A stretch of 30,052 nt of DNA from Candidatus Vampirococcus lugosii (GTDB taxonomy: Bacteria; Patescibacteriota; Gracilibacteria; Absconditabacterales; Absconditicoccaceae): contig NZ_JAEDAM010000100.1 of NCBI RefSeq assembly GCF_018420025.1, forward strand, positions 1 to 30,052, written 5' to 3'. Positions 3,297-28,575 of the stretch are shown piece after piece. The notes beneath the pieces are model-generated. The model did not search any database and was not told the origin of the DNA. It worked only from the letters and a program-made list of their open reading frames with translations. A program made the position numbers and the translations under genes. Numbering within the stretch: the first letter of the stretch is position 1; the number at the start of each line of letters is the position of its first letter.

Positions 3297-3935
3297 ATGA
3301 AAATAAATAATAAATGATTTACTCTTGTTGAACTTATGATAGTTCTTTCTATAATATGAGTTCTTTTTGGTGTTTTTTCTAGATTATTAAGTTTTGAAAA
3401 TAGAGATTATATTAGATGAGAGTGATGTGTTAATCATGTTTATTGAGAAATAAAAAATTATTTTGATAATGCATCAACATGAAAATGAATATATACATGA
3501 TGAAATGATTTAGAATTCCCTAGTTTATATTCAGTACAATTTAATACTTGAGATAATAAAGTGTTATTTAAATATGATACTGTTAGTTCAACAGGTCAAG
3601 ACTATAAAGAAATTTTGCTTTCTTGAACTTGAAGAGATTCCAATTTTTGTTTTGATGAAAATGCATGATATCATATTAATATAGATAAAGTGAATTTGGA
3701 TAAAATTGCTATGAATAAATTATTACAATCGGATGTAAAGACTTCTCCATTTACATTACATGAAACTAATGATAGTATTGTTACTTGACATGTTGAATTT
3801 GTTTTTGAAAAATGAGATTTTAAAAGAATAATAAGTAAGATAGAATTTGATAAAAGGGTTAGTAGAATTTATCATAATAAATGTGTTCATCGGTGAGATG
3901 ATTATGAAACTTGTGAAACTTGGTCAGATAATTAA
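3297..3935 (+). CDS. Type IV pilin / prepilin with class III signal peptide, candidate major pilin
   Basis: 212 aa. N-terminus MKINNK-G|FTLVELMIVLSIIGVLF is a prepilin peptidase site with Glu+5, and the invariant Gly-1 is TGA at 3315-3317. The C-terminus has a Cys-x10-Cys pair (NKCVHRGDDYETCETW) resembling the pilin D-region disulfide loop. Confidence 0.75.
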
Positions 3936-5241: not shown

Positions 5242-5313
5242 TTATATCTTAAAAATAAAAAAAATAAAAAAAATATTATTAAAAATTTACTTAATTAAAA
5301 AAAATAATATATT

Positions 5314-6549
5314 ATGAATATGCAAGAATTTGTTCCAGATTTTGTTCCTTGAGCTAGAATTAAAGTAGTTTGAGTTGGTTGAGGTTGAGCTAATACTGTA
5401 AATAGAATGATAGAAGATTGAATGCATTGAGTAGAATTTATTACTGTAAATACTGATGCACAGGCTTTATCTAGTAGTTTAGCTGATAAAAAAATTAATA
5501 TTTGATTAAATATTACTAGATGATTGTGAGCTTGAGCTAATCCAGAAGTTGGTAGGAAATCTGCTGAAGAAAATATTGATGAAATAAAAAAAATTTTACA
5601 AGATACTGATATGATTTTTGTTACTGCTTGAATGTGATGATGAACTTGAACTTGAGCAGGTCCAGTAATAGCACAAGCAGCAAAAGAAATGTGAATTTTG
5701 ACAGTTTGAGTTGTTACTAAACCTTTTACTTTTGAGTGAAGAAAAAGATTTGATAATGCAAATGAAGGCTTAGAAAAAATTAAAGCATCGGTTGATACAT
5801 TGATAGTAATTCCTAATGATAAAATTTTTAATATTATAGATAAAAAAACTACTTTTAAACAAGCTTTTTCTATGGTTGATAAAGTTTTATTGTTGTGAGT
5901 TCAATGAATATCTGATTTAATAATTAAACCTTGAGATATTAATATAGATTTTGCAGATATAAGAGTTATTATGGAAAATTCTGGTACTGCTTTATTATGA
6001 ATTTGATATTGAGATTGAGAAAATAGGGCAGTGGATGCAGCTAGGAGAGCAGTTGATAATCCTTTGTTGGAAGCAAATTTGGAATGAGCTGAAAATATTA
6101 TATTTGCAGTTACATGATGAGATGATTTAACTCCTGTAGAAGTGCAAGAAGCATCTAGGGTAGTTGAAGAAATAGCAAATCCAGAAGCAAATATTATTTG
6201 GTGAATGACTTTTGATGAAGGTTTTGAATGAGAAGTAAAAGTTACAATTGTAGCAACTTGATTTCCAGAATCTACTCAAGAAAGTATGATAAGATGAGCA
6301 AAACAGTCTAATGTAGGTATGAGAAGAACTAGATGAGATGATTTTGTAGCAAAAGCTATATGATGAATGTGATGAGAAAAATCTAATTCTACAAAACAAA
6401 ATTATTCTAATTCTAATAATTATTCTAATTCTAATAATTATTCTAATTCTAATAATTATGATTCTTGACAATCTTGATATAATCAAAACAATAAATCATC
6501 TAATGATATAGAAACTCCTGCTTTTTTGAGAAAAAAATTATGAAAATAA
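5314..6549 (+). CDS. ftsZ: Cell division GTPase FtsZ
   Basis: 411 aa, frame checked codon by codon. ARIKVVGVGGGGANTVNRM, NTDAQAL. In the tubulin signature AGMGGGTGTGAGP, all six Gly of GGGTGTG (5635-5655) are TGA. C-terminal conserved peptide DIETPAFLRKKLGK. Confidence 0.97.
6400..6459. repeat. 18-bp tandem repeat (aattattctaattctaat x3.3) inside the ftsZ C-terminal linker
   Basis: Three perfect copies at 6400-6453 plus a partial copy. In frame they encode (NYSNSN)x3. This also generates the artefactual antisense track ORF 6127-6486 (RIIIRIRIII...). Confidence 0.95.
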
Positions 6550-6795: not shown

Positions 6796-6826
6796 AACTA
6801 TAAAATTGAGTTATAGTTTTTTTATT
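6796..6826 (+). terminator. Hairpin plus T-run
   Basis: aactataa / ttatagtt 8-bp stem, 7-nt loop, followed by ttttttattt. It overlaps the stop codon (6822-6824) of the minus-strand gene. Confidence 0.35.
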
Positions 6827-7979
6827 TATCAAAATCTGATATTTTATTAATTTTATTTTGAAAATCTAAAATTTTATTATTCATTAAGTAGAAATCTATA
6901 CATCATTTCAAAAAAGAATTTGTATCATCTCAAAAATTTAAAATATCTTTTTTTAAATTTAACATAACATAAATTTCATTATTTTTTATAAAAAATTTAA
7001 ATTCTTTATCATTAAATAATTTTATTAATTCTTCTATAATTTCAAATAATTGAGTTTTCTCAAATTTTTCTCTATGATATGTATCATCTATTAAAATATT
7101 ATATTTTTCTTCTAATTTTAAATTATATATTTTATATTTTAAATATATATATAATATTAAAATATTAAGTGAAACCCAAAAAATAACACTATTAATATTT
7201 AATATTAATTCATTATAATTCATACTTGTAATATAAAATATTGTACCTAATAAAAGTATTGCAAAAAATATTGGAAATAAAATTTGTAAAATCATAAATA
7301 AAATACCTTTTGAAGTAATTTTTTTAATTATTTTTATTCATTCAGAATAATTATAATCTATTTTTTTATCAAAAATCATTTTTCGTATATATAGTTTATC
7401 AACAGTTATTAAATTAGGTCAATTATCTGAATCATTAACATTTTTTGTTTCCAATTCAATTCATTTTATTTTTGAATTTTTATCAATATCATATTCCAAT
7501 GAATTTCAAAAAAATCAAATTGTTGTATAATCTCTTATGAGATTAGTTTTATTTTTTACTTCATCTATACTTTCATCAAAAAAATTATCAGAAAAATTAA
7601 ATTTAATTCATTTAAGCATAAATTCTAAAAAAAATACAAACATATAATTTTCCTCATCAATTATTTTTTTTTCATCATCTTTGAGACTTCAAGATTTTAA
7701 AATAATATAAAAAAATAAAATAAAAAAAGTAATAATTCAGATTAGTGATGTAAATTTAAATTCAAGCTGAGATAAAACTAAAATAGATACTCCCCATAAT
7801 AGAAAAATATAAAGAACTAATTTCCCAAAAATATTACTTTTTTGTTTATATTTATTTTTATTTTTATTAAAATCTAAAATATTTGTTTCATTTTCAAAAA
7901 ATGAATAAATTTTATTAATTTCTTCTTCTGTTATCTTGGAATTATAAATTTCTTTAATATTCTTTTTTATATTTAACAT
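6822..7979 (-). CDS. Uncharacterised membrane protein, paralog A (two TM pairs separating two soluble domains)
   Basis: 385 aa. Track ORFs 7737-7979 and 6930-7295 are in the same frame, and the stretch between them has only TGA, no TAA/TAG (checked codon by codon). Stop is TAA (rc of 6822-6824). Homologous to the 9985-11148 product, e.g. KFNFSDNFFDESIDEVKNKTNLI vs KFSLSDKYFDETVKEIKDKTGLL, and FFIKNNEIYVMLNL vs FFFEKNQIYVIIHL. Confidence 0.7.
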
Positions 7980-8048: not shown

Positions 8049-8157
8049 ATTTATTTCAAATTTATTGATATGAAAGTTAAAAAATATGAAAAAAAGTTTT
8101 GACTATAATCATAAAAAAATATATAATATATATATTTATATTTATATAAGAATAAAT

Positions 8158-9303
8158 ATGCAAGAAAAAATAGTAAAATATATTGAAGAAATAGAATGAT
8201 ATATTATTAAATTAGATTCTTTAAATTATGATGAAATAGTTAATTTATACTATATGATAATAAATAATTATGATATAGTAATAAAAATTTCATATGAAAA
8301 TATTGCTAATTCAAAAGAATATGTTTATCTTAAATTAAGTAAATTAAATAATTTACTTTATGTTTTGCCATATTTTTATAAATATAGTGATTTTTCAAAA
8401 TGACTTGAAGCTTTTAATTTGATTGATGATTTAAAAATAAATTGTATGTCTGAATTATCAAAATTAGATATAAATAATGAAAATAAAATAATAAAACTTT
8501 TGGATATAGCTTATCTGTATACTAAAGCTTGAAAAAAAATAATTGAGTTTAATAATGAAATACAAATAGTAGAACATATATATACATCAGCTATTAAAAT
8601 TTTTGATCAAGCTATTTATATAGATGATAAAAGAAAAATTTCTTATTTAATAAAAATTTCTGCAACTGAACTTATGTGAAAAACTTCTGAATCTTTAAAA
8701 ACTCATTATGATTTATTAAATAATGATTCGGATTTTATAGATGATTTTTCTGATAATTTAGATAAAAATGGTAATATAAAAATAAAAACTAAAGATTTAG
8801 ATAATTTGATAAAAGATAATAAAATAATTGCAAAATCAAATAAAATTATTTTTCAATCTGCTAGTTTTTGAGCACTTATAACTATTCATCCTTTTCCTAT
8901 ACCTATGTTAGATTATTTTTTGATTGTTAGTATTCAAATAAATATGCTTGTTAGAATATGAAAATTATATTGAATAAAATTAAACAAAAAAATGGCAAAA
9001 GAAATTTTAGTTCAATTATCTTGAACAATGTGATTTTTATATTTTAGAAATCATATAATTATATTTTTAACAAAATTATGAATTCCAATATTTTGAGGTT
9101 ATATAATAATTCCATTTGTTTTTGCTTTTATATATTGAATGTGAAAAGTTTTTGATGCATATTATTATTATCAATATAATAATATTGAATTAAATTCAAA
9201 TGAAATTAAACAATTATTTACAGAAAATAAAAACTGGGCTTGGAATTTTGCAAAACAACAAAAGAATTTTATCATTAAAGAATGAAGAAAACAAAAATTA
9301 TAG
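8158..9303 (+). CDS. Membrane protein with C-terminal DUF697/YcjF-like domain (putative)
   Basis: 381 aa, frame checked codon by codon, TAG at 9301-9303. An alternative in-frame ATG at 8086 lies in very AT-rich sequence. The C-terminal half SASFGALITIHPFPIPMLDYFLIVSIQINMLVRIGKLYGIKLNKKMAKEIL...GIPIFGGYIIIPFVFAFIYGMGKVF matches the DUF697 pattern as I remember it (P-x-P-x-x-D, Q-x-x-M, YG). Confidence 0.55.
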
Positions 9304-9984: not shown

Positions 9985-11148
9985 TTAAATATAGTAATCA
10001 ATATTTAAAACTTTGGGAATATTAAATATTTCTCTAGTTAATATATAAAAATCTACATAACATTTATATGTTGAATGTAAAAATAAATAATTTCATAAAG
10101 AGAAAAAATTATTATTTAAATGAATAATTACATATATTTGATTTTTTTCAAAAAAGAAATTAAATTTTTTGTTTGGAAATTTACTAACTAAATCTTTGAT
10201 AGAATTTATTGTTCTACTATCCAAAAAATTTCTTACTTTAATCTGATCTTCAGCTCTAATATTAAATTTTTTTGTAAAATCAATATCTTCAAGTTCTACT
10301 TTTTTACCTTTTTTACTAGTCCAAAAAAATAAAAAAATAATTACAAAAAATGTAAAAGATAAAACGATAACCCAATAATTAATTTTAGTTTGAATAAAAT
10401 TATATAATATAAAAACTGAAAAAATTAAAATAATTAATAAAAGTCAAATTTCTTTTGTCTCAAAAGAAAATTTATTAGTAATTTTAATTCGGTCAAAAAT
10501 ATCAGAATTTTCTCAAATTAATTCTATTTTTTGAACATAAACATGATCAGCTTTTCTCCGTTTTGTATTTCAATCTTTATCTTTGTATTTCTTCATAGTA
10601 TAAATTTCAATTCAAGAGATATCAGCAATTTTAGTATCTCAATCAAAATATTCATAAGATAAAGAATTTGCAAATTTATCTATTTTGTCATAATAAGAAA
10701 GTAATCAAGTTTTGTCTTTTATTTCTTTTACTGTTTCATCAAAATATTTATCAGATAAACTAAATTTTGCTCAATCAAAAATTGATGCAACAAAATTAGA
10801 AAATATATTTTCTTCTATATTTTTATTTTTTGATAGAAAATTACTTTTAAAATCAAATTTTAAATAAAAAAGATAAAAAGATATTAAAATAATTAATATA
10901 CTAAAAACATTATATAAATTAATTCATCATAAATTAATAATAAAAATAAAATTTAAAATTATTAAAAATATTATATAAATTATAAAATATATTTTATATT
11001 TTTGATAAGCATTTTTTTTATCTTTTAATAAAGATTGAAAATCTTCATTTTTTTTAAAAAAATTATAGATCTTGTCTAATTCATAATCTGAAATTAAATC
11101 TTTTTTGTTCTCTTTTTCATAATCTTTTTTTATTTTTTCTTTATCCAT
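9985..11148 (-). CDS. Uncharacterised membrane protein, paralog B (same architecture as 6822-7979)
   Basis: 387 aa. The entire frame was read codon by codon and has no TAA/TAG. Stop at 9985-9987, only 21 nt upstream of the lemA start. N-terminus DYELDKIYNFFKKNED parallels EEEINKIYSFFENETN of paralog A. Confidence 0.7.
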
Positions 11149-12500: not shown

Positions 12501-13592
12501 ATGTTTGATAATATTATAAAAAAATTTATTGAAAATAAATGAAAAAATAGATTTAATATTAAAGATAAAATATTTTTTTTTAGAGAATTAGCATATTTAA
12601 TAAATTGATGAATTGTAATAACTGATTCTATTTTGATGATAAAAGAAAATTCTGAAAATATTGCTATTAAAAATCTTTGTTGAGAAATATATTCTTCTTT
12701 AAAAAAATGAGAACAATTTTCAAGAACAATATCAAGATTGCCGAAATATTTTAATGATGGTGATGCAAATATTATTAGATCATGAGAAGGTTCTGGTGAA
12801 TTAGTTAGAGTTCTTAAATATTTAGCAAATGAATATGATTTTTTGTATGATATTAAAAATAAATATATTTGAGCTATGATTTATCCTGCTTTAATATTTT
12901 TTGTATCATTGATTGCAGTTTATATTATATTTACAGTCGTTTTACCTTGAATTTTGGTAATAGTACATGATTTTGATGATTTAGAATTACCTTTTGCTAC
13001 TAAAGCATTGATTAATATTACTGATTTTTTTGTACAAAATAATATATCTATAATTATTGTATTAATTATGTCAATATTAGCTTTTTCTATATTTTTATGA
13101 ATACAAGAATGAAAAAGATGGTTTGATAAACAAATATTTAAAATTCCTATTTTTGGAAATTTTACAAGGAAATATTTATTAGTAAAATATTTAAGATATA
13201 ATAAATTATTGATAAGTTCTGGAATGTCTTATAAAGAGCTTTATTCTTCTCTAAAAAGATTATTTAATAATTATCAATATATTTCTATGATTAATGATAT
13301 TCAAAAAAATATAAATATTTGACAAGATGTTTTGGAACCACTTAAAAATTATAGAAATATAATACCAGCAGATGTTTTTGTTTTATTAAAATCTTGACAA
13401 GAATCTGCAAATATGATTGAAGCTATAGATAATGCAATAGAGTTATATCAAGAAGAATTTAATAAAGATTTAAATAATTTAAGTAAAATTATAGAACCAA
13501 TTTTGGTAGTTTTTGTATGATGAATTGTTGCATTTATTGCTTTATCAGTATTTTGAATAGTTTGATCTATATTAGATTCTGTAGCTTTATAA
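12501..13592 (+). CDS. pilC: Type IV pilus / T2SS platform protein (GspF/PilC family)
   Basis: 363 aa, frame checked codon by codon. Two GspF-type repeats (FFFRELAYLINGGIVITDSI...IIRSGEGSGELVRVLKYLA and LISSGMSYKELYSSL...LLKSGQESANMIEAIDNAIELY). Three TM segments. Confidence 0.85.
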
Positions 13593-13610
13593 TTAATAGT
13601 TATTTATTCT

Positions 13611-14144
13611 ATGTTTTTTAATAAAAAAATAAATTATTGATTTACATTGATAGAAATTGTGTTAGTAATTATTATTATATCAATAATATTAATTTTTATA
13701 ATATTTTATGGGTATTGACAAATAAAGACAACACAATTTAGAATTGATAAACAATCTCTTATTGATATTCATCAAAAAGTTCATAGTTCTACTTTGGGAT
13801 CAAATATTTATTATTGAGAAAGATTTGATTATCTTAAATTAAAATTGGAAGATCAATCCGATAATATAAATTTATATATTTCTTGAGCAAATTCAAAAAT
13901 GTTTTATGAAAGAACTAAACTTAATAATTCATATATATCTTGATTTAATTATTCTCAAAATTTAGAAGATGAAATTTATTTAAATATGAAAGCTTATGAA
14001 TTGTCTTGTTCAATAGAATCTTGAGCCGATTTGTATACTTGATGAAATTTATATTTTGATTTAATATCAACTAATTGAGCTGAAAAATATTGTTTTGATA
14101 TAAATCTTAGTTCTTGTAAAATTTTTGAATATAAATGTGATTAA
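13611..14144 (+). CDS. Prepilin-type pseudopilin
   Basis: 177 aa. MFFNKKINY-G|FTLIEIVLVIIIISIIL, with Gly-1 as TGA at 13638-13640 and Glu+5 present. Confidence 0.75.
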
Positions 14145-14173
14145 TTTAATACTTAAAATTTATTTTGTAAAAA

Positions 14174-14743
14174 ATGAAAAAGTGATTAACTTTGATAGAA
14201 GTTATGTTTTCTATAGCTATATTTGGAGTATGAGCAGTTTATGTCTTATCTAGTTTGATAGATAATATTTCTTTTTTTGAAAGAACTAATTTGAGAAATG
14301 AAGCAACATTTCTTGCAAAAGAAGGAATAGAAATTGCTTACAATATAGTAGATAGTAATATAAATAGATGAATGGCTTGGAATTGTCTAGGTTATGATTC
14401 AAATTATAATTGTACAGAAAAAATATGAGATTCAAATAATTATTATAAATTTTCTATAGATAAAGATTGATATTTTAATACTTCTATTACTAATAAAGAT
14501 TTTGATGATAATATTATTTATTATCATACTTGAACAAGTGATTTATTTTGGTACAATCACGATGATACTTGACAAGAAACTTATTTCTCTAGATATTTAT
14601 ATTTTACATGAGTTTATTCACAAGGAGATTCATGAATTATTGATAAAAATAAAATATTAAAAGTAAATTCTATTGTAGAATATAAAAAATGAGCTTTTAC
14701 TTGAGAAGTAATTTTGGAAAGTTTTATTTGAAATGTTAGATAA
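14174..14743 (+). CDS. Prepilin-type pseudopilin
   Basis: 189 aa. MKK-G|LTLIEVMFSIAIFGVGAV, with Gly-1 as TGA at 14183-14185. Confidence 0.75.
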
Positions 14744-14770
14744 TTTAATTTTTTTGAAAAATTTAAAAAT

Positions 14771-15343
14771 ATGAATAAATGATTTACACTTATAGAAATA
14801 ATGATATCCGTAGTTATATTATGATTACTTATTGTAATTATTTTTTCTGTTTATAATACAGTAGCTGAGTTATCTATAAGAATAGAAAATGAAAAAAATC
14901 TTTCAAATGAATTACTTTTTGTTTCACAAAATATTCAATGATTTGCAGATAGTTTAAGTTTAGATTTTAGTAAATATTCTGATTTAGATACTACTAAATG
15001 ATTTACTTGAAGCTTGTATTTTACTTGAAATGATTTTGTAAATATTTATTTAACATGAGATACTTCGTCAGATATTGATAATATAAGAAATAGTAAATCT
15101 TGGATAGAAATGAATAAAAATTGAGAGATAATGAAACTTACTGATCCAAATAAAATTTATATAAGAAATTTAAATTTTAAAATAATTCCTTTTGATGAGA
15201 TAAGATGATTAGATTTTGATAAAATATATAATCAATGATTTTGGATTTTTGTAGAAGCTTATACAAATAATTATTCAAAATATTCAAGTGTTTATGATAT
15301 TTCTTCAAATGTTCAAGCTTTTTTTAATGTAAGACAATATTAA
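14771..15343 (+). CDS. Prepilin-type pseudopilin (PulJ/minor-pilin-like)
   Basis: 190 aa. MNK-G|FTLIEIMISVVILGLLIVI, with Gly-1 as TGA at 14780-14782. Confidence 0.75.
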
Positions 15344-15367
15344 ATTTTAATAAATCAAATAATTAAA

Positions 15368-16162
15368 ATGAATAATAGATGAAATATGTTAATTATTGTA
15401 ATATTTGTTATGATTATTACCTCTCTTTTTGGTATATTGACAACTAGATATGTAAATAGTATAATACAATATGGTTCTGCTTTCCATAATTATTACAAGG
15501 CATATTATTTGGCAAATGCTCCATTGCAATTACAACTTTTGAAACAAAAAAATCGTTGACTTGGATTTGAAGATAAAATTTTAACTTGATCCTCAACTTT
15601 TTCTAATAATTTTGATTGTGAAAATTGTTTTTTTGAATCAGAATTATTAGCAAGGAATTCAATAATTATAGATGAATCTGAGCATAATCTTTTTCCATCA
15701 GATTGTGATTTAGATAATTCTAATCATTTTGCTTTGGCAGGTTGAAAAGGTACTGTAATACCACTTTTTTGGGATCAAAATACTTGAGAAGGTTCTGTAA
15801 ATTTAATTAATATAAAAAGACTTCCAAATCTTGGTGGTTTAAATATAAAAAAAACTTCAAGTGATACAAATAATTATGTAATTTGAATTATTGATGAAAA
15901 ATTAAATTCTTCAAGTGTAGATGATATTAATTTTGTTAATACATTAAGTATTATTGATGAATCAATAAATAATTATTTAGTAATTGCAAATAATACTTGA
16001 AATGCATGAAAATCAAGGTTTTGTATTAATGACACCAATAATCTTCCAACTACTCATATTAATATTAATTCTTTATGAAAGTTTCAAAATACTTATGTCT
16101 CGTTGAGAGCTAAAAGATCAATTCAATTACCAGAATATTTGATATATTCAATAGTAGAATAG
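15368..16162 (+). CDS. PilX/GspK-like minor pseudopilin (hydrophobic N-terminal helix, no Glu+5)
   Basis: 264 aa. MNNRGNMLIIVIFVMIITSLFGILTTRYV. Last gene of the pilus operon. TAG at 16160-16162. Confidence 0.5.
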
Positions 16163-17080
16163 TTAAATTTGTTTAATTTTATGATCTTTACCTTGTATTA
16201 TATTATTTGTTCATCATCATTTTAATCATTTTGATTTTGCAAATTCTTTTGCATTTATATTTTTTGTAAAAATAACAAAATTTCAATCATTATTATAAAT
16301 AATAATATTTTCTCAATCAAAAACTTGTTTAGCAATATTTAATATATCTTTAAAATTTATTTTATTTAATTCTTCGTATTTTGAAATATTTATTATTTTA
16401 TCAAATCATTCTTTTGATTCTCAATCTATATTTTCCAAAATAGATTTTACAATATTTTGTTTCATTGATTCATATTCTCATTTTATTTGTTCTAACTCTT
16501 TTTGTGATTTATTTAATTTTTCTATTATTTGTTTAGATGTACAATCAAGTTTATCAGATATATCTTGTAATAATTTATCTTGTTCTTTAATATAATTATA
16601 TACTTTAGTTCAAGTATATGCAATAATTCTTCTTACTCAAGAAGATACAGCTTCTTGAGATATTATTTTAAATATTCATATTTGTGAAGTATTATCAACA
16701 TGAGTTCATCAACATAATTCTATAGAAATAGTTTTTTTTTCTCAATTTCATATACTTATTACTCTTACTACATCTCAATATTTTTCTTCAAAAAATGCTT
16801 TTGCTCAAGCTTGCAAAGCTTGTTCCAAACTCATTTCTTTTTTATTGACTGATAATCATTCATATATAATATTATTTATATTCTCTTCTATTTGTTGTAT
16901 TTCTTTATTTGATAAAGCTTTTTTGCAAGTAAAATCAAATCTTATATAATCATTATCTACAAGTGAACCTGCTTGTTTAGTATTCTTTATTATTTTATTT
17001 AATTCTCAATGAAGTAGGTGAGTGGCTGTATGTGCTCTCATATTTCAATTTCTTTTTTTTATATCAATTTTTAATTTCAT
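16163..17080 (-). CDS. alaX: Free-standing alanyl-tRNA synthetase editing domain plus C-Ala domain (AlaX-like trans-editing factor or C-terminal half of a split AlaRS)
   Basis: 305 aa. Zinc/editing motifs HTATHLLH and ELCGGTH. GSLVDNDYIRFDF, GAKAFFEEKYGDVVRV, IGIFKIISQEAVSSGVRRIIAYTG, a coiled-coil linker, and a C-terminal AKSKGLKGGGTNNIIQG that parallels the E. coli AlaRS C-terminus GGKGGGRPDMAQAGG. Starts about 15 residues before HxxxH. No aminoacylation domain is encoded. Confidence 0.8.
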
Positions 17081-17243
17081 AATAACTTATTAAAAATATA
17101 AAATTTATTAATTGAAATATAAATATATAATTTTATTAATCAAGATATTTTTAAGAGAAAATATAAAAATGTATTAAAATTTATTTGCAATATATACATT
17201 TTTTATATATAATTGAATTAATTATAATTTTAAAAAATAGAAA

Positions 17244-19670
17244 ATGCAAATAAAAATAAAAATTATACTATCTTTTTTGTTATTGTTTTTGATATACTTT
17301 TTAAGTAAGGATTTTTTTATTTTAAATGTATATGCTCAATCTGCTGATACTTCTGATTGAGATATTTCTAGTATTGTTTCTATTTTGGAAGTAATAGTTC
17401 AATTTTTTTATATTATAATACGACCATTTATTTCTATAGCTTGAGCTAGTTTGTCAAATGAATTTGTTTATGGTAGTATATTCAATTTAGATTGAACATT
17501 ATATATATTTTGGAATATGATGAAAAATTTTGCAAATTATATTATTGCATTTGTATTTTTGATTTCTATATTTTTTTATTTTATAAACTATAAACAAGAC
17601 GGTTTCAATCCTAAATCATTAATACCAAAATTTTTGGTAGCTACTGTATGAATACAAGCAAGTTGGTTTTTGTTAGCTGCTTTGATAGATTTATCAACAG
17701 TTATGACTTATAGTATATGATGATTGCCTTTGACCGTTTTGGATAATTTTAAAGAAGATGAAGAAGCATTAATGTTGCCCGTTATGAGAATGGAAATGTG
17801 AGATCAATGATTATGATGAATTACAAAATCTGATAGAACATTATTTTATACAAATCCTTGAAATTCAGAAACATATGCAACTTGTGTTACCGATTGACAA
17901 GAAATTGATCGAGATTATTTAAATGAAAATTCATGATCTTTGCAAGAACAACTTGATCAATTTGATTGAAATTATAATCTTAATACTCAATGATGTGTTT
18001 TCTCAAATAGACTTTATTGACAAGGATGAGGTAATAATTGGAATGATGATAGAGATTGACTTATAGAAGCTTGAAATAATTTATGTGATCCAAGTGGTGA
18101 TGATTGTTATTCAATTAAAGAATTTACTGATAGTGTTAAATGATTTTCTTGACCTTTGTATACACTTTTTGGAAGTTTATCAAATATTGCTGATTTATGA
18201 GTTTCTTGAGTTTGATGATGAGGTGGAGCAGAAGTTGGGGCATACAGTATTATAGCTATGATGAAAATAATTATTTTTTTAGCACTTATTATACCATTAC
18301 TTACATTGACAATAGTATTGATAATAAGATGAGTTTTGATGTGGCTTATTATAGCTTTGGCACCATTATTAGTAGTTTCATGGACTTTTGGATTTAATAT
18401 TAGTTGATCTTCAGATAAATATTCTATGTCGTCAGTTTTATCACTTATATTTTTACCAGTAATTGTAGCTTTTGCAGTAAGTATTAGTATTATATTCTTG
18501 ACAGTATTAAATAATACATTAAAAGTATGAGATTTTCAATGATCTACTTGAGCATTAGCAGTATTATGATTAGAAAAAAATGTAGATGATGCATGAGAAG
18601 AAAAATGACAAGAAATTTGTTTTAAAATTCCATTGTGAGATGAGAAAGAAACAAATATTTGTTTTAATTCTCCTGAAAATGCAGTATGAATTTCTCCATT
18701 TTTGGATATACTTGGTTGGATAGTTGTTAATTTATTTGCTGTAGCTCTTATGTGGTCTATAATATTCGCTGCACTAAAATCAGCAAAATTGACTTCTTGA
18801 GTTGTTAATTGGGTTGATGGCATATCAAAAGAAGCATTCAAAACTGCTCCTGTTATTCCTACACCTTGGTGATCTCAAAGTATTTGAAGTCTTGGTAGAG
18901 TTTGAGAAAGTTTAAGTAAACAACCTTGACAAATAATAAGTAGACAATATGCAGAATCTTGAATACAAGATACTATGAGAACATTAGAATGAACTTTTTC
19001 TTGAACAAATTCTCAATGAATTCAGAATTTTAAAAATTCTGTTAAAAAACCATGATATGATTCATCTACATTTACTCAAACAGCTAGTTCAGCTATTTGA
19101 GCTTGACAACATATATGAGATATTCAAGAAGATGTTTTATCTGAATTGAAAGATAAAGATAAATCAGGTATGTTTAATTCAGCAAATTCTTTGACAGATA
19201 TAGCACAAGATCCTGATATGAGAAGTCATTATAATTCAAATTATTGAAATATAGATAATTTATTATCCCAAACTAATCGTAGTGATGGTAAAACTTTATT
19301 AAGTGAACAAGAATTAAAAGAAGTTTATTTTAATTTGGAAAATAATATGATATCAAATTGATATGATAAAAAATTATCTATAGATTGAAATAGAATATAT
19401 AAAAGTAAAGATTGAAGAAAATTTTATCATTTTTCTTGAGAAAATATGGATGTTAAATTAATATGAAATTTAGATTTAGATTATGTTGATAAATCAAAAG
19501 CAAATGAATTTATAAATAAAATATATAATATTGATGTTGATAATTATAAATCTAATTTAGAAAAATTATGATTTAAAATTTGAGATGATATAAGTATTAA
19601 AGGTGAAAAATATATAATACAAGATACATGATCTTGAATAAATTTTGAAAAAGAAGACCCTAGTTCTTAA
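17244..19670 (+). CDS. Large polytopic membrane protein, paralog 1 of 3 (VirB6/TrbL-like topology, hypothesis)
   Basis: 808 aa, whole frame read codon by codon (only TGA interruptions). Signal-peptide-like N-terminus (...LNVYAQS). Motifs: WNMMKNFAN, KQDGFNPK, IQASWF. About 190 aa Cys-containing loop. TM cluster MMKIIIFLALIIPLLTLTIVLIIRGVLMWLIIALAPLLVV. ICFNSPEN loop. KLTSG...KTAP. About 270 aa soluble C-terminal tail. Confidence 0.75.
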
Positions 19671-19711
19671 TAATTTAAAATAAAAAAATTTAAAATAAAA
19701 ATTAAATAAAT

Positions 19712-21562
19712 ATGTTAAAAAATAATAAATCTTTTTTATTGATAATATTTGTAATATTCTTTTTGATGCCTTCATTTGTATTTGCATCTTGATGAGAGGA
19801 TACAGATTTTTTGATTAAATTTTTGAATAGTTTAATATCTTTATTTAGTTGGTTTTGGATTATTCCATCTATTATTGCAGGTACTTTGATGACCAATGAG
19901 CTTGTATATGGTGAATTAATGTATTTGGATAAATATCTTTTTGAGATATGGAATATGTCCAAAAATTTTGCAAATTTTACTTTGTGATTTTTATTTTTAT
20001 TTTTGGTTTTAAAATCGTTTTATAAATGAGAGCCTTGAAGTGTTGTCAAATCATATCTTCCCAAAATTACAGTAGCTTGAGTTTTGATTCAAATGAGTTG
20101 GTTTTTGGTAGCAGCTATTATAGATATTAGTATAGTTGCTATGTCAGCAGTTTCTACATTGCCAAATTATTTTGTAGATTCTACAGATGGTAAAGATAAT
20201 GAATTGACAATTACTATGCCTGAGAAATGTGATTTTTTGAAAGCATTTAGTGATCCAAATAATGTTGATATTTGTACTTGAGAAATTGGTGATATCAAAT
20301 TGAATGATATAAGTGCTAATGCATTGAATGCAAGTTGACCTTTACTATATTTTTGATTTACTGTATTAAAATTACAACAATTTTCAAATTCTGAAGTTAC
20401 AAGCTGGGAAAATATAACGGCAGAATTTTTGATAAAATTATTTGTAGTATTAATGTTTACTATTCCTTTGATTGTTTTGATGGTAATAAATTTTATAAGA
20501 TTGTTTTGGCTTTGGATGTTTATAGTTTTTTCTCCTTTTGTAGTATTGGATTCTATTTTTTCTAATGCAGTAAGTTCAAAAATGGAATGATCTGTAAAAA
20601 AATTAACTCTTTCAAATTTTATATGACTTGCTTTCCAGCCTGTAATTGTAATTGGTATGTTGTCTGTAATATTAATTTTTGTAGTATGACTTAATACTAT
20701 ATTTCAAATTGATGATAATCAAGCTCAATCTGAAGATCTTATAGAATCCTTGAAAGAAACTATGTGAGTTTTTAGTTCTGATAATGAATCTTGATGAATA
20801 ATGTTGTGATGAGAAAATGGTTGACAAATTCTGGCTGCATGAGATATTATGAGTGATGTTTGAAATGTTTTGTGATGAGCTATATGATATTTAGTTTTGG
20901 CTATATTTGTGTCTTTTATGGTTTGGTCATTGGTTAAATTATCTTTCAAAACTTCTGAAATTACTTCATGAGTTTCTGATAGTATATTTAAATTTACTGA
21001 ACAAACTATGAAAACAGTTCCAATACCAGGTACTAAAATTAGTTATTGAGCATTGGAAAGATGAAAAAGTAATTTAAGATGAGAAATATTCTGAATGACT
21101 CAAGCTCAACAAGCATCATGAATAGAATCTAAACTAGATAGTTTGTTTGGTAATAATTGATGATGAAGTGGGTGAGGTACTAGTTGATCAGTAAGTCCTG
21201 GTCCATCAATTAATAGTTTAGAAGAACAAAGTTTAAAAGTAAAGATACAAGATTGAAATGTACTTCAATCAAAGATATTCTGGAAAGAAATTATAAGATT
21301 ATGAGAATCTTGAAAATCATTAAATCCTAATCAAGATAAAAGGTTAAAATCTATTATAGAACAACGAGCATTAGAATATGGAAAAAATCATTCTAATCTT
21401 AAGATATTAACTAATTGAAAAGTAGATCGGAATAATGAAAATTTTAAAAGATTAGTTAATTATATTATGGCGAATTCATGAGATGTGCCATGATGAGGTG
21501 ATAGTAATTTATTGAGAGATAATCCTGATAGTAGTTCTATTGAATATTGATTAAAAAAATAA
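19712..21562 (+). CDS. Large polytopic membrane protein, paralog 2 of 3
   Basis: 616 aa, frame checked codon by codon. Signal-like N-terminus (...FVFAS). WNMSKNFAN, IQMSWF. TM cluster LFVVLMFTIPLIVLMVINFIRLFWLWMFIVFSPFVV. Gly-rich tracts written as TGA runs. EITSG...KTVP. Track ORF 20084-20281 is an internal fragment. Confidence 0.75.
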
Positions 21563-21591
21563 TTAATTTTAATTAATTTATATATCAAAAA

Positions 21592-23376
21592 ATGAAAAAA
21601 AGTAAAATTATTTTATTAATTGTATTAACATTAATATCAAGTTTATTCTTGAATAATTTTGCTTTTGCTTCAGAAACTATTAATTATCAAACTGCATTAT
21701 CAGATAGAGTGGAGTCATGATTTTGAATGTTTGAAACAATATTAAATGGAGCTTATATAATTGTTTGGCCATTACTTTTGGTTGCTTGACAAGCTATGGA
21801 TAATCAATTGATTTATGGATCTATAATTCATATAGATGTTCATTTGTGGAATATATGGAATATGTCCAAAAATTTTGCAAATTTTGCTTTATGATTTGTA
21901 TTTTTAATATCAATATTTTTGTATATTTTAAATATTAAACAAGATAAATTTAATCCAAAAAAAATATTTCCCAAAATGCTAGTTTGAGTAGTATCTATAC
22001 AAGCAAGTTGGTTTATAGTTTCTATTTTATTGGATATTTCTACTATAATTACTTATAGTGTATGAGCTATGCCTTTGAATATTATATCGGCAGATGCAAC
22101 ACTTGATAAAAAAATTCTTTTACAAAATAGTAATTTGGATTTGGAAAGTTTATGAAATTCTTTTGGTACTGGTGCTGAAAATCAAACTTGGTTTTCGGAT
22201 TGAAATACTAATTATATAAATTGTACATTGGAAAATAAAGATTGAGATTATTATTTTTCTTGAACATTATTTGAAGATTCTATAAAAGATGCACAAAATA
22301 AATGAATAGATGTAAATGATTGAAAATGTATATTACAAATTATGTGAAATAGATTAGTTCCAGCTGATGATTCAATTCCTATATCTGAAACTATAAAAAA
22401 GATAGAAGAAGATTGAACATATTGACAAGATGATTGAATTAGTATGTCAGAAATAATAAATAGTGCTAATTGACTTACATGAATTTTTTATACTCTTATA
22501 TGAAGTTTTTTGGGGACTTCTACTATTTCTACATCTGGTTCTTGAATTACAGGAGATACATGAACAGCTAGTTTGTGAGCTATTTTTGTTATGAAAATGA
22601 TTATAGCTCTTGCAATGATTGTTCCTATTTTTGCATTGGTTATTGTGTTGATTATGAGAATATTTATTATGCGGGTTTTGATAGCATTTTCTCCAATATT
22701 AGCTTTTGTTTATTCTTTTGATTTGTGATTATCAAAAAAATTATGAAAATATTCACTTTGATGATTTTTATGGTTAATATTTTTACCAGCTTTTGTTGTG
22801 TTTGCATTAAGTATTTGATTTATTTTTATGACAATACTTACTGAAAGTATATGAAATGTTAATAAAGATAATCCATTATCTATTTCTGCATCTGATGTTG
22901 GGAATGATAAAAATAATTGTTGGGAATTGTGAGAATATTTTCCACAAATATGTTTTGGTTCGCCTGACGAAAATACTTCATGATTTTCAACATTTTTGGA
23001 TTATTTTTCTTGGTTGATAGTTAATATTTTTGGTATTATAATACTTTGGAGTATGGTTTTTTCTGCTATTCAATCCTCAAAAATAACTTCTTGAATTGCC
23101 AAAAGTATTCAAAATTTTTCAAAAGATATGTTAAAAACTGCACCGATACTACCTGGTTGAAATAGTTATTGATCCGTTAAACAATGAATGTGAGAATTAT
23201 CTACTATACCAAGATCAATAACATCAAAACAATATAATGAATGAGAAGTTTGATGATTTGCTAAATCTGTTCAAGGTTTAGTAGATAATAATAACAAAAA
23301 AACAAAAGATTGAGATCAAGATGATGATCAAGATGACGATAATCAAGATGAAAATAAAAATAATCCAAATCAATAA
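21592..23376 (+). CDS. Large polytopic membrane protein, paralog 3 of 3
   Basis: 594 aa, frame checked codon by codon. Signal-like N-terminus (...FAFAS). WNMSKNFAN, KQDKFNPK, IQASWF. MKMIIALAMIVPIFALVIVLIMRIFIMRVLIAFSPILAF. ICFGSPDEN. KITSG...KTAP. Acidic tail DGDQDDDQDDDNQDENKNNPNQ. Confidence 0.75.
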
Positions 23377-23640: not shown

Positions 23641-24312
23641 TTACAAAACTAATTCTCATCAATTTCTTTTTAGCCATTCTTTATGATTTTGGTAATCAGG
23701 CATATATTTATAAACTAAATCCCAAAATTTTGGAGAATGATTTTTTTCTTTTGTATGACAAAGTTCATGAATTATAATATATTCAATAACTGAAACAGGA
23801 GCCAACATAATTTTCCAGTGAAAATTTATATTATTATTTGAAGTACAAGATCCCCATCTATTTCATAAATCTTTTATAGATATTTTATTTATTTCAAATC
23901 AGTTTTCTTCTGCCAAAAGTTTAACTCTAGGAAATATTTTTTTATTAAATCTTTTTTTGTACCGTTCTACAAAAATTTTTTTTCAATTAAAAATATATTT
24001 TTTATTTAACTCAAAAGAATTTTTATAAAATCTTAATTGAAAATCAACATTTTCTACTAATTTAAGTTTATACATTCTTCATAAATAATAAAATCATTCT
24101 CAATTTACAAATTCTCTATTTTTGAAAGAATATGATAAACATTTTTTTTCTTCAAGTTTGGTATATATCCATAATTGTTTTTTATCAAAAAAATCTTTAA
24201 TTTGTTCATCACTTGCTTGATTAGGAGCTTTAATAATAATATTATTATTTCTTTCTATTGTGACACAAATTGTTTTTCTTTTTGATTTTATTATTTCATA
24301 ATTTAAATTCAT
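23641..24312 (-). CDS. YgjP-like zinc metallopeptidase (DUF45/M48-related), typical companion of type I hsdR
   Basis: 223 aa, frame checked codon by codon. YEIIKSKRKTICVTIE, NRWGSCTSNNNINFHWKIMLAP, IEYIIIHELCHTKEKNHSPKFWDLV (HExxH). Confidence 0.85.
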
Positions 24313-24393
24313 ATGTCACTAAATTATTTATCTAAATGATAAGCAAGATTTAATAAGTTTTCTATTAAATTATTTTTTAATTCAATATTTTCT

Positions 24394-27300
24394 TTAGATA
24401 TTTTTTATCAATCAAGATTTATTAATTAAATCATTTATTTCAAGTCTTACTTTATCTTGAGATCATTCATCATTCCAAAAATTTACAATTTTTAATTTTT
24501 TACTAAAAATTTCATAAATTTCAATAGTTAATTTCATTAATTTTTGATTTTGTTCTTGATTTATTTCTTTTTTTTCAAAAATATTATTTTTGATAATATC
24601 AAAATATGGTATTTGATTATTGTTTAATCATTCAATATTTTCATTAGGTCTTTTCATAATATCTTGCAAAACTTCTTCCAAATCTTCAATCATTTTTTCC
24701 CAATTATTTTTTTGGTCTTGTATTATTTCTTGCAACTTATCAGATAATGTTTTGAAAAATTCTGGGTCTTTTTCAAAATTTTCAGATATATGATATCTAA
24801 TTGCATGTTCCATCTCGGAAGCTTTTGATTTATTAGATTTTATTCAATTTATAAATTTATCAAAATCATCATCCATAATAGAAATAGGAGGAATATTTGG
24901 ATCTATTCATTGACTTGTAATGTATTTATCTATAAGTTTTTTTACTTTTTTTCAAGTTCATATTATATTCAATTGATTGTCTCTATATCTATTTTTGGCA
25001 GAAAACAAAATAAATCAAAATGCCTTGTAATTATTTATATATTTCAAAATCGCTTTATCTGGACTTACTATATCAATACTTTTTGATAATTTTCTATATG
25101 CAACAGTAAATTTTGCTCTCAAACTTACATCTTCAAGTAAATCAATACATAAATCAATATCTTCATTTGTATCAAAACTTTTAATTCAATTTTCTTCAAA
25201 AATTTGTACTACTTTTCTATATTTTTCATCTAATCTTGGAATTTCTTCATCCAAATTAATCATAGCTCACTTAATATCATTATCTGAAAATATTTCAAGT
25301 GCTTCTTTTAGATTATTTGCAATTCAATAATAATCTACCAAATATCAACAATTTTTTCAACTTGCAGTTCTGTTTACTCTAGCAATAGTTTGCAATAAAT
25401 TATGTTCAATTAATTTTTTATCCAAAAATAAAACTTGTTCAATAGGTGCATCAAATCAAGTCAAAAGCATATCTGTAACTATTATTATTCATAAACTACT
25501 TTTTTTATTTTTGTCTTTATTTTCAAAAGGTTTTTTGAAGTTTTCTATTTGTGTTTTGTGAATTACAGAGTTAGTATATTTTTTATAAAATTCTTCATCA
25601 TTATGATTACTTGATATAATTACAGTAGTTTCAAGTTCTTTCAATATTTCTAAATCAATAAAATCTTTATTTTTCAAATTTGAAATTCAATTTTTTATTT
25701 TTTCAATCTCTTGTTTTATTGCCTTATCAAGATATTTTTTGTATAATATTGCTGATTTTCTACTATTTACAACTACTTGAGCTTTGAATCAGTTGATAAA
25801 TATCTTATCAATATAATATTGTATCATATCATTAGCTTTTTGTTCAATAATTTCTGGAGCATCAAGATAATTTTGTTTATTTCAATATTTTTTTAATATA
25901 GCTTGTCTTTCTTCATCTGTATAATCTTTAAACATATCAATAAATTCTTTATCCATTGCTTGTTTATCTTTTATAATATCTTGAGAAGTTCTTCATTCAT
26001 AAATAATTTGGACTGTAGCTCAATCTTTTACAGCTTGTTCTATAGTATAAGTATCAATATATTCTCAAAATATTTCATGGGATTTTTTTCTTAATTTTCA
26101 AGTAATTATTGGTGTACCAGTAAATCAAATTTTAATAGCATTTGGCAGTGCATTTGATAAATTTGCTCATAAAGTTCAATCTTGACTTCTATGTGCTTCA
26201 TCTATAAGTAATAAAATATTTGGACTATTGTTTAATTCTGTAAGTAATTTAGTTTCTTTTACATATTTATCAGGATTTTCATTATCTTTGGATTGAAATT
26301 TGTGTATCATTGCATTTACTATATTTGAATCATCGCTTGATATTTCTTTTAATATATTTTTAATATTATTATCTTTGTTATTTTTGGGATAAATAGTTTC
26401 TCAAATAGTTTTTGCTGTTTCTCAAATTTGTCTTTGTAAATCTGTTCTATCTGTAAGAAAAATAATTTTAAATTTTTTTCATTCTTTTGTTTTTCTAAAT
26501 TTCCTAATCAAAAAAATCATAGTAAGAGATTTACCACTTCCTTGAGTATGCCAAATAATTCAACCTTTTTGTTCTTGAGATAAAGATTTATTAGTAAGTT
26601 TATTTATTGCTTTATTTACAGCTCTATATTGTTGATATCTACACAATATTTTTATTTTTCTTCATTTATCATCACTTTTAAATACTATAAAATTATTTAT
26701 AATATCAAGAATATTTTCTTTTTTCAAAACTCATTTTATAAGAATATTTTGAGAATTATCATTTTTTTCTAAATCTTTCCATTCAAGATAATGTTCAGCA
26801 TTTGCTTTTATAGTTCATATTCTTGTTTCTTGTCTACTTGTTGCAATCAATAATTGATTAAAATAAAATAATTTTTCATTTCATTCATTATTTTCTGCTC
26901 ATCTATCATTTTGATATCTTTTGAGTTGATAAATAGCTTCTTCTATAGCTTCACTAATTTTTGGTGATTTGCATTCTACTATTCATATAGGAATTCAATT
27001 AATAAAAAGTGTAATATCTGGAATTATATGTTTTTCTGTTCAAGGAATATTTACTTTGTATTGACTAATAGCTGTAAAAATATTATTTTCTAGATTATCA
27101 AAATCTATAATTTTTACACTGGGACTTTTTTCTCAAGTAATTCTATTTTGATCAACATTTAATCAATTAAGTAATATATCAGTTGCTTGTTCATTTGCTT
27201 CAAAAAGATTTGTTTTATTTATTTTTTTTAATTCTCAAAAAATTTCTTCAATTTGATCAGTTTCCAAAAAAGAATTTATTTTTTTTATAGATTTTGTAAA

Positions 27301-27447
27301 TAAATCTTCAATCAATATTTCTTTAAAACTTTGTCTAAAAGTAATATTTGCATCATCTTTATTTCAATATACAATATTCCAACCTAAATTTTGTAATTGT
27401 TCTAAAAAAGGTTTTTCTACATACAAATCCTCATTATAGTGAGCCAT
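24394..27447 (-). CDS. hsdR: Type I restriction enzyme R subunit (HsdR), intact
   Basis: 1017 aa. All ~1018 codons were checked for TAA/TAG and none found. The track shows only fragments because of TGA=Gly. N-terminus EKPFLEQLQNLGWNIV, FINGIPIGIVECKSP, Walker A WHTQGSGKSLTM, LLLIDEAHRSQ, GFTGTP, LLTGFDAP, QTIARVNR, and a long helical C-terminal domain. Confidence 0.92.
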
Positions 27448-27461
27448 AGTTTACTTGTTAT

Positions 27462-27842
27462 TTATTTATTTAAATTATTTCAATAATATTTTTTAATTCT
27501 ATCTATGTTATGATTTTCTTTTATATTTTTATGATAAATTTCTATTAAATCAAGTTCAATTAAATCTATCTCTTTTTTATCTTCTTTGTAAGCATAAACT
27601 AACCTTAATGATTTATTGTCTTTTAAGCTTTTACAAGGAAATTTTCTAACTTTCATAATAGGTATTTTAACTTCTTTTCATAGATCAGAAATTTGAATTA
27701 TATTATCTCAATATCCTTTTGGATATCTTTCAATTGCTAATTTTACAATATCTAAGTCATCTTTTAATGATGGGTATTTCTTTTGAAGTTTTTTAAATTC
27801 CTTTTTAAACTCTTCAAGTTTATTATATAAAAAATTAGTCAT
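27462..27842 (-). CDS. RelE/ParE-superfamily-like toxin (putative)
   Basis: 126 aa, frame checked. EFKKEFKKLQKKYPSLKDDL...MKVRKFPCKSLKDNKSLRLVYAYKEDKKEIDLIELDLIEIYHKN fits the usual RelE/ParE/Gp49-type pattern (K-x-R ... R-h-h-Y ... IY-x-K). The start overlaps the upstream gene by 8 nt. The stop is 14 nt upstream of the hsdR ATG. Confidence 0.55.
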
Positions 27843-28575
27843 TATTCTCAGATTTACTAATATACTCTCAACTTCTCATATGTGCTAATTGGTAAGGTAT
27901 CTTATCTCATATATTTTTTGTTGATATGTATGGCATATCATTGTGAGAATAATCACTTACTTGTTTTGCATTCATATTTGATAATTTTTCTATTACATTA
28001 TCAATAATTTCTATCTCTAATCAATTGAAAACACTTAAATCATATCTTATATTTGGTATAAATCTTATTTGTTTATATCATTTAAATTCTGTTTCTAATT
28101 TTTCTATTTGTTTATCATCTTCCATTTGTGTTAGTACATCATCAATATCTTTTGGAACAGGTCATCTTGGTAGTTTTATATAATCTTGATTAGATATATT
28201 TTCCCACTTATTTTCATAGTAATTAAAATCACTAAAGTATAATAATTTATTTAATACTGTTTTTCATATATTTGGCTTTTGTCAGCACTTTGTTAATATA
28301 TAAAGTATAAGATTTTTAAATTTTTTATGGTCATCATCTTCTTTTATCTTTTTATATTCTTCTTTTTTTGTTCAGTCTAAAAGTTCATCTTCATCAACCT
28401 CAAAAAGATTAGCTATCTGTAATAGTAATTTATCACCTTTTTTTAGTATTCTTTTATCATTTTCAATATTTGCAAGACTAACTCTATTTATTTCAAGATA
28501 ATTAGCTATCTGTTCTTGTGTTAATTTTGAATCTTTTCTAAGTTCAGTTATCTTTTCTCATAGTGTTTTAGTCAT
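27835..28575 (-). CDS. XRE-family HTH fused to a DUF4065/Panacea (SocA-like) antitoxin domain
   Basis: 246 aa, frame checked codon by codon. HTH: LGEKITELRKDSKLTQEQIANYLEINRVSLANIENDKR. Panacea-type core: KTVLNKLLYFSDFNYYENKWENISNQDYIKLPRGPVPKDIDDVL ... VSDYSHNDMPY. Confidence 0.7.

Follow-up and report, generated by a model that had tools for sequence, protein, structure and literature searches.

What is the role of three large membrane-protein genes that stand in tandem beside a pseudopilus operon in an epibiotic predatory bacterium, and do they belong to that pilus or to a secretion machine? The question was raised by a contig of Candidatus Vampirococcus lugosii (30,052 bp, GC content of ~20%), which was analysed over its whole length and is called the window here. 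V. lugosii is an ultrasmall epibiotic predator of the Absconditabacteria lineage, GTDB class JAEDAM01 (PMC8080830; PMC12102498). A preliminary description of the window had compared the three genes, here named P1, P2 and P3, with VirB6/TrbL proteins and had suggested that they form an envelope conduit linked to the pilus. Proteins of the TrbL/VirB6 superfamily form the channel, or platform, that type IV secretion systems (T4SS) have in the inner membrane. Our analysis suggests, with a probability of about 60%, that P1, P2 and P3 are a highly divergent, heteromeric membrane platform of the VirB6/TrbL type in the T4SS-like machine of Patescibacteria.

Organisation of the three genes and their family

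With translation table 11, the window contained 16 open reading frames (ORFs) of at least 100 aa with a total length of 6.5 kb, which rose to 39 kb when TGA was taken as a sense codon; thus, table 11 shreds these genes, as had been stated earlier. Because the five glycines of the universal FtsZ signature GGGTGTG have TGA codons, TGA was read as glycine (code 25). It is by far the commonest glycine codon in P1, P2 and P3 (59, 42 and 39 TGA codons versus 16, 13 and 12 GGN codons, respectively). The homologues in public databases were frequently found to be mistranslated, with tryptophan at TGA-glycine positions. The translation with code 25 bore out three co-directional genes of the sizes first described, with spacers of 41 nt between P1 and P2 and of 29 nt between P2 and P3. 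These genes and a candidate promoter are as follows.

17244-19670, plus strand: P1, A type, 808 aa (code 25); 536 bits against the family hidden Markov model (HMM); A clade of the neighbour-joining (NJ) tree
19712-21562, plus strand: P2, B type, 616 aa; 330 bits against the family HMM; B clade of the NJ tree
21592-23376, plus strand: P3, A′ type (lineage-specific duplicate of A), 594 aa; sister to gene 1 in the tree
17184-17213, plus strand: promoter-like site (TTGCAA, 17 nt, TATAAT) from a consensus scan, ~30 nt upstream of the P1 start; candidate

The three products are polytopic paralogues with pairwise identities of 30-35%. They have in common an N-terminal hydrophobic signal-like peptide, the motifs WNM(M/S)KNFAN, IQ(A/M)SWF, (L/I)TSG and KT(A/V)P and a transmembrane arginine, whereas KQDxFNPK and ICFxSP(E/D)EN, which had also been described as shared by all three, are confined to P1 and P3 and absent from P2. 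The C-terminal tails diverge as claimed earlier: the membrane core of P1 (~540 aa) is followed by a soluble tail of ~270 aa that is predicted to be cytoplasmic, and P3 ends in a short poly-acidic tail; the tail of P2 is Gly/Ser-rich. P3 was found to be 100% identical to P0001, a hypothetical protein of Ca. V. lugosii at NCBI. None of the three had a match above threshold in Pfam, and NCBIfam gave nothing for P1 and P2 and nothing above threshold for P3. These genes did not come up in a term search of the published description of the V. lugosii genome (PMC8080830). No terminator-like sites were detected between the three genes. The promoter-like site ahead of P1 is weakly supported, and such sites in the region were not enriched over shuffles (69 found, 62 expected).

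A word-indexed search returned only eight relatives, and an exhaustive profile search at E ≤ 1e-3 returned 4,734 cluster representatives (50% identity); 543 of them reached E ≤ 1e-30. The suggestion that the family may be undescribed holds in so far as no profile library annotates P1, P2 or P3; with so many representatives, however, the family is not rare. Scanning one genome per GTDB species gave 73 loci, and the lineages named were SR1, Absconditabacteria, Gracilibacteria and ‘Peribacteria’. The ORFs of 85 loci (81 non-redundant) were called with TGA as glycine and scored with the family HMM. A co-directional tandem pair, consisting of a long gene of ~800-950 aa, a spacer of 20-60 nt and a gene of ~600-690 aa, was present in 64 of the 85 loci; a triad was found in 7 and one copy in 14, mostly at contig ends. 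In the NJ tree, the first and second genes formed two deep clades, named A and B, which branched internally in parallel. P3 and its orthologues in loci L001, L003 and L012, the third genes of their arrays, were sister to gene 1, and this was seen only within the clade of Vampirococcus, L001, L003 and L012. By this placement P1 is A, P2 is B and P3 is A′. Since the A and B clades are deep and the third gene is sister to gene 1, the array represents an old pair plus a recent extra A and not a three-fold amplification. The tandem amplification proposed earlier thus holds for the presence of three tandem paralogues and fails for the unit involved. At the level of sequence comparison, these results together showed the ancestral unit to be a co-transcribed and co-evolving A+B pair, to which an extra A is added in Vampirococcus and its closest relatives.

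P2 and P3 share an identical stretch of 33 nt, which had been ascribed to gene conversion or strong constraint.

19946-19978, plus strand: 33-nt stretch in P2, exactly equal to 21853-21885; encodes IWNMSKNFANF
21853-21885, plus strand: copy of 19946-19978 in P3

The match is exact, does not extend further and comprises 11 in-frame codons, and the peptide it encodes is the best-conserved motif of the family. When identical residues and the codon bias of the genome were taken as given, the chance of all 11 codons matching was P ~0.04. In the complete alignment of P2 with P3, 87 identical residues also had identical codons, against 88.1 expected. As the codon identity over this alignment equals expectation, there is no signal of gene conversion, which was therefore rejected, and the 33-nt identity is explained by protein constraint together with codon bias.

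The Arg-Pro core and the membrane topology

The alignment of 80 family members showed a conserved core in which a transmembrane helix bears an invariant Arg, a Pro follows 12 residues later and a further helix comes next. The position of this core in each protein is as follows.

18246-18539, plus strand: P1 TrbL/VirB6-like core (aa 335-432; Arg362, Pro374); next transmembrane helix with LIFLP; equivalent of the PF04610-matching stretch
20408-20722, plus strand: P2 TrbL/VirB6-like core (aa 233-337; Arg263, Pro275), mapped by alignment; the B-type protein P0143 matches PF04610 here
22576-22863, plus strand: P3 TrbL/VirB6-like core (aa 329-424; Arg356, Pro368), placed by hhalign on PrgH 131-176 and 141-206 with Arg and Pro aligned

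When 113 members in two disjoint sets (55 and 58) were scanned with Pfam, PF04610 (TrbL) was the sole family matched by more than one member. It was matched at E ≤ 0.01 by 3 of the 55 and 3 of the 58, with best E values of 5.4e-6 and 4.1e-5, respectively. One of these six members exceeded the curated gathering cut-off of 25.9 bits. This was P0018, an A-type protein in the position of P1 in the conserved cluster (E = 5.4e-6, 26.8 bits), the residues 339-467 of which aligned with PF04610 77-202. The B-type P0143 matched with E = 0.0025 at a site mapping to P3 aa 329-424, and the family consensus matched the same stretch with E = 4e-4. All these matches fell on profile positions 77-202, a region equivalent to aa 329-424 of P3 and hence to the Arg-x11-Pro transmembrane core. 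Thus, six members of the family have a core that matches the TrbL domain of Pfam in its C-terminal half.

The profile-profile and structural comparisons pointed weakly to the same superfamily. The hhalign comparison of the 80 members with PrgH of pCF10 gave E = 0.028, and with an eight-member PrgH alignment E = 0.065, both in the same core region; the invariant Arg155 of PrgH and its Pro at +12 were aligned with the invariant Arg and Pro of the family, which are also 12 residues apart. In NCBIfam, aa 259-373 of P3 showed a weak match (E = 0.004) to NF045848, a family of Mycoplasma membrane proteins for conjugal transfer. An AlphaFold2 model of P3, built with an 80-sequence alignment (predicted local distance difference test [pLDDT] 82, predicted template modelling score 0.77), and a model of the B-type protein P0008 (pLDDT 73) were compared by Foldseek with 350,542 PDB chains. 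The P3 model had no significant match, with R388 TrwI/VirB6 (8rt9_F) at rank 47. For P0008, 8rt9_F was at rank 10 with the highest probability of the list and the joint-highest target template modelling (TM) score (0.31), and 7o3v_J was at rank 36. Each of these lines is weak; all of them lead in one direction, and none leads elsewhere. Two further searches were discarded: the family HMM against 342 ORFs of four conjugative plasmids placed R751 TrbL first, with 5 bits and on non-equivalent helices, which was taken as noise, and the family profiles, when compared with all PDB sequences, matched in the tails only, with coiled-coil noise.

The AlphaFold2 models contain seven to eight hydrophobic helices. 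In P3, an N-terminal hydrophobic helix is followed by long helices (32-69, 82-112 and 122-167) and a mixed alpha/beta domain (177-320), then by a 41-residue helix (325-365) carrying the invariant Arg356, a short helix from Pro368 and a helix at 389-421. The model ends with a beta-hairpin region (431-456) that has Cys on either side, helices 467-494 and 497-516 and a helical tail. The large central loops of P1 and P3 lie as follows.

17739-18233, plus strand: P1 large central loop (aa 166-330), acidic, with four Cys; predicted extracytoplasmic
22084-22563, plus strand: P3 large central loop (aa 165-324; C211, C246), folded into strands and helices in the P3 model

The central loop of P2 is short (aa 155-228) with one Cys pair. 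The earlier observation of paired cysteines in two loops was confirmed, as all 12 Cys of P1, P2 and P3 fall within two acidic loops in even numbers per loop (4+2 in P1, 2+0 in P2 and 2+2 in P3), and C214 and C251 of P1 are kept in at least 90% of 58 family members, which are mostly of A type. Among the 80 members (P3 numbering), Lys and Arg are abundant in the short loops 116-124 and 378-388, at the extreme N-terminus and in the C-terminal tail. The acidic loops are the central one and that at 420-466, and essentially all Cys are found there (2.7 and 1.4 per sequence, respectively). This distribution of charge and cysteines favours an orientation in which both Cys loops would be outside and the C-terminal tail inside.

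The predicted layout, with at least five transmembrane segments, a large extracytoplasmic loop in the middle and the C-terminus in the cytoplasm, is that of TrbL/VirB6 proteins (PF04610; A. tumefaciens VirB6, R388 TrwI and RP4/R751 TrbL), of which TrwI recurred as a weak fold match. The seven to eight hydrophobic segments, the central acidic Cys loop and the Lys/Arg-rich tail also fit the published outline of A. tumefaciens VirB6. Unlike VirB6 (~300-350 aa), however, P1, P2 and P3 are two to three times longer (594-808 aa), fall below every profile threshold and have a signal-like peptide, a folded Cys loop domain of ~160 aa and an obligate A+B pairing, with no VirB4, VirB3 or VirB8 adjacent. 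Among the VirB6-like proteins of monoderms (pCF10 PrgH, pCW3 TcpH and Tn916 Orf15/ICEBs1 ConG), PrgH has the invariant Arg, the Pro at +12 and the same helix pair, although the similarity remains below significance (hhalign E 0.03-0.07). TcpH is close to P1 in length (832 versus 808 aa) and has, like P1, a polytopic N-terminal and a soluble C-terminal part. The VirB6-like genes of these monoderm plasmid systems directly adjoin PrgI and VirB4, which the A/B genes do not. It is from this monoderm class that the T4SS of Patescibacteria is reported to derive (PMC12102498). The rvhB6a-e genes of Rickettsiales, several co-directional VirB6-like paralogues with long extensions, resemble the array in this respect. 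They come from another lineage with another type of envelope, VirB6 homology is recognisable in the Rickettsia proteins but not in P1, P2 and P3, and the A/B duplication is an ancient split kept across Absconditabacteria and Gracilibacteria. Rickettsia has been cited as a case of dispersed T4SS islands (PMC12102498).

Gene neighbourhoods and the competing explanations

The T4SS described in Patescibacteria is chromosomal, relaxase-less and of the monoderm (MPF-FATA) type, with VirB4, TrsD, PrgI/VirB3, VirB6 and VirB2-like pilins, and for Microgenomatia and Gracilibacteria a 2025 survey described VirB6 homologues as ‘scarce or absent’, a finding it put down as ‘suggesting extreme sequence divergence’ (PMC12102498). 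The A/B pair, ubiquitous, unannotated and VirB6-shaped in exactly those lineages, fits this gap. Furthermore, VirB2-like T4SS_pilin genes (PF18895) were found within 10 kb of the pair in 21 of the 81 loci, 1.2-1.8 kb away in 12 of these, in several arrangements and on either side; Pfam confirmed this label for one protein, and for others it was precomputed. A 233-aa protein with a precomputed TraC-like Pfam label, which had a weak hhalign match to VirB4 N-terminal domains (P = 0.005), was present within 10 kb in 19 of the 81 loci. This protein and then one or two T4SS_pilin genes were seen as a compact module 1.3-8 kb from the A/B pair (e.g. L094:6641-8392, L085:6672-8469 and L030:20475-21748), upstream or downstream of it depending on the genome.

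The most conserved neighbour was a secreted protein of ~277 aa without a Pfam match, which stood immediately downstream of the pair in 45 of the 81 loci (e.g. L030:14370-15212 and L008:10279-11112). Its identity as a VirB1-like lytic transglycosylase was rejected, with no support from Pfam or from hhalign against SLT, TcpG and PrgK; similarly, an ATPase of ~1,030 aa near the pair in relatives, considered as VirB4, proved to be UvrA. Other neighbours in relatives were a metallophosphoesterase of ~405-495 aa and, in L003, L007, L012, L073 and L099, three unannotated secreted proteins of ~410-480, 560-580 and 580-690 aa upstream of the pair. This conserved upstream run, to which the metallophosphoesterase also belongs, was located at L003:925-5522, L007:734-7060, L012:66-5670 and L099:3142-9867. 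The upstream secreted proteins and the metallophosphoesterase may belong to the same system as the A/B pair.

Several results weigh against the assignment to VirB6/TrbL. P1, P2 and P3 themselves gave no PF04610 match even at E ≤ 1, and so did not reach the gathering threshold. The PrgH profile match was not significant by the statistics of hhalign (probability <1%), the comparison with 11 P-type TrbL proteins was not significant (E = 0.075) and aligned the wrong helices, and single TcpH, R46 TraD and R751 TrbL sequences gave short and inconsistent matches. The Foldseek matches to TrwI/VirB6 had E > 1, and weak profile matches can be inflated by hydrophobic transmembrane segments. The number of helices before the central loop conflicts in parity with the predicted topology, as three hydrophobic helices lie between the signal peptide and the loop. 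Among the annotated genes of the window there was no VirB4, VirD4, VirB3 or T4SS pilin, nor a relaxase, the lack of VirB4, VirD4 and relaxase having been noted already in the preliminary description, and canonical seeds for VirB4 and the type IV coupling protein found nothing within 10 kb of the pair in the 85 loci. The commonest neighbours, the 277-aa secreted protein and the metallophosphoesterase (16 of the 81 loci), carry no T4SS annotation. The missing VirB4 and VirD4 are nevertheless no anomaly, because the T4SS genes of Gracilibacteria are mostly not clustered with virB4 (PMC12102498). The VirB6/TrbL likeness first proposed thus stands as the sole recurring lead, from Pfam members, NCBIfam, PrgH and Foldseek, and does not extend to a TrbL profile match of P1, P2 and P3 or to significance in the profile-profile tests.

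The main rival explanation is an envelope complex that is peculiar to Patescibacteria and has no evolutionary link with VirB6, such as a host-contact or surface-organising scaffold or an uptake channel, in which the TrbL and PrgH matches would reflect convergent features of transmembrane helices. Such a complex would agree with the finding that no solved or curated family was matched significantly by profile-profile or structural comparison, with a pair that is never beside a recognisable VirB4 and with neighbours that are mostly unannotated secreted proteins and a metallophosphoesterase. It accounts less well for TrbL being the sole recurring Pfam family, with every match on one homologous segment and one of them exceeding the curated threshold, for VirB6 being the only functionally coherent structure that recurred in both fold searches, and for the T4SS pilin genes, which recur close to the pair in differing arrangements. 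We consider this explanation possible but rather unlikely.

A solute transporter or a lipid or glycan flippase is very improbable. The proteins are polytopic, genes for glycosyltransferase family 4 and Wzy_C occur downstream of the pair in some relatives, and glutamate-transporter structures head one Foldseek list; those matches, however, had TM scores of ~0.1 and root-mean-square deviations above 25 Å and amount to noise, no transporter or flippase family was matched in Pfam or NCBIfam, and such proteins do not typically have long soluble tails, large folded external loops or an obligate A/B pairing.

The pilus genes next to the array are as follows.

12501-13592, plus strand: PilC (window annotation, code 25)
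13611-15343, plus strand: three pseudopilins with the N-terminal methylation motif
15368-16162, plus strand: fourth gene of the pilC-pseudopilin run, without a Pfam match
16163-17080, minus strand: AlaX-like protein, between the pilus operon and the array

A conduit working with this type IV pilus or pseudopilus (12501-16162), as the preliminary description had it, hardly deserves credence: the array does begin 1.08 kb past the last pseudopilin gene, and the AlaX-like gene on the opposite strand is the only one in between, but PilC or pseudopilin homologues were near family genes in 1 of the 81 non-redundant loci, which is the V. lugosii window itself, and the triads of the closest relatives (L001, L003 and L012) have quite different flanking genes. 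The conserved neighbours of the relatives are all absent from the window, so the Vampirococcus locus has been rearranged, and its place beside the pseudopilus operon reflects a rearrangement confined to this genome.

Other genes of the window and meaning for predatory lineages

The remaining genes of the window are as follows.

1398-2114, plus strand: UppS-like protein, named from its sequence
2143-3273, plus strand: DnaN-like protein, named from its sequence; 14 kb upstream of the array
3297-3935, plus strand: solitary pseudopilin with the N-terminal methylation motif, between dnaN and ftsA and apart from the main pilC-pseudopilin operon
4057-6549, plus strand: FtsA and FtsZ (FtsZ at 5314-6549)
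6822-7979 and 9985-11148, minus strand: two paralogous membrane proteins of ~386 aa, one matching DUF3137 (E = 4.5e-12) and the other weakly DUF2207_C
8086-9303, plus strand: DUF697 membrane protein, between the two ~386-aa paralogues
23641-24312, minus strand: YgjP-like metallopeptidase, directly downstream of P3 on the opposite strand
24394-27447, minus strand: type I restriction R subunit (HsdR), 1017 aa, followed by a small gene of no known type
27835-28575, minus strand: helix-turn-helix/Panacea (SocA-like) antitoxin-type protein (window annotation, code 25)

The C-terminal tail of FtsZ (6390-6500) contains a linker with the tandem low-complexity repeat NYSNSNNYSNSNNYSNSNNY, followed by the conserved C-terminal peptide. 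The minus-strand region 23641-28575 looks like a defence island and marks the synteny break with relatives. The GC skew of the plus strand was positive where genes are on that strand (~1-23.4 kb, with the exception of minus-strand genes) and negative past ~23.4 kb, where every gene is on the minus strand; as its sign matches the coding strand, the skew follows the coding strand. The T4SS genes of Patescibacteria are often near the origin (PMC12102498).

If P1, P2 and P3 are indeed a VirB6/TrbL-type platform, A and B, together with A′, would assemble as a hetero-oligomer in the membrane as part of a monoderm-type T4SS-like machine. The disulfide-stabilised central loop domains would face outward, where they could seat a fibre of VirB2-like pilin or touch the prey envelope, and the cytoplasmic tails (~270 aa in P1) could be docking sites for ATPases or substrates whose genes lie elsewhere in the genome. 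For a predator that is an obligate epibiont, the machine would serve to transfer macromolecules between it and its prey and not for conjugation. The most specific form of this proposal is put forward only tentatively, and we regard it as doubtful. It holds that the relaxase-less, chromosomally encoded T4SS-like machine of Absconditabacteria and Gracilibacteria has A/B(/A′) as its missing inner-membrane channel, a hetero-oligomer with large disulfide-stapled external domains and long cytoplasmic tails, and that this channel makes up, together with VirB2-like pilins, a conduit for macromolecules between predator and prey.

To our knowledge, Vampirococcus and Absconditicoccus, both of Gracilibacteria-type lineages, are the only microscopically characterised predatory members. 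The genome paper of V. lugosii stresses type IV pili and giant surface proteins, and electron microscopy showed no bridge between predator and prey (PMC8080830). The T4SS-like system is widespread in Patescibacteria and was essential for epibiotic growth in the sole member that has been genetically tested (PMC12102498). The family described here has thousands of members, all labelled hypothetical, which are invisible to table 11 annotation and missed by current T4SS profile sets. If the VirB6/TrbL assignment is true, the parts list of the machine in these lineages would gain its missing VirB6, with an unusual heteromeric architecture and large external domains, and there would be concrete targets for understanding how these predators extract the contents of their prey.

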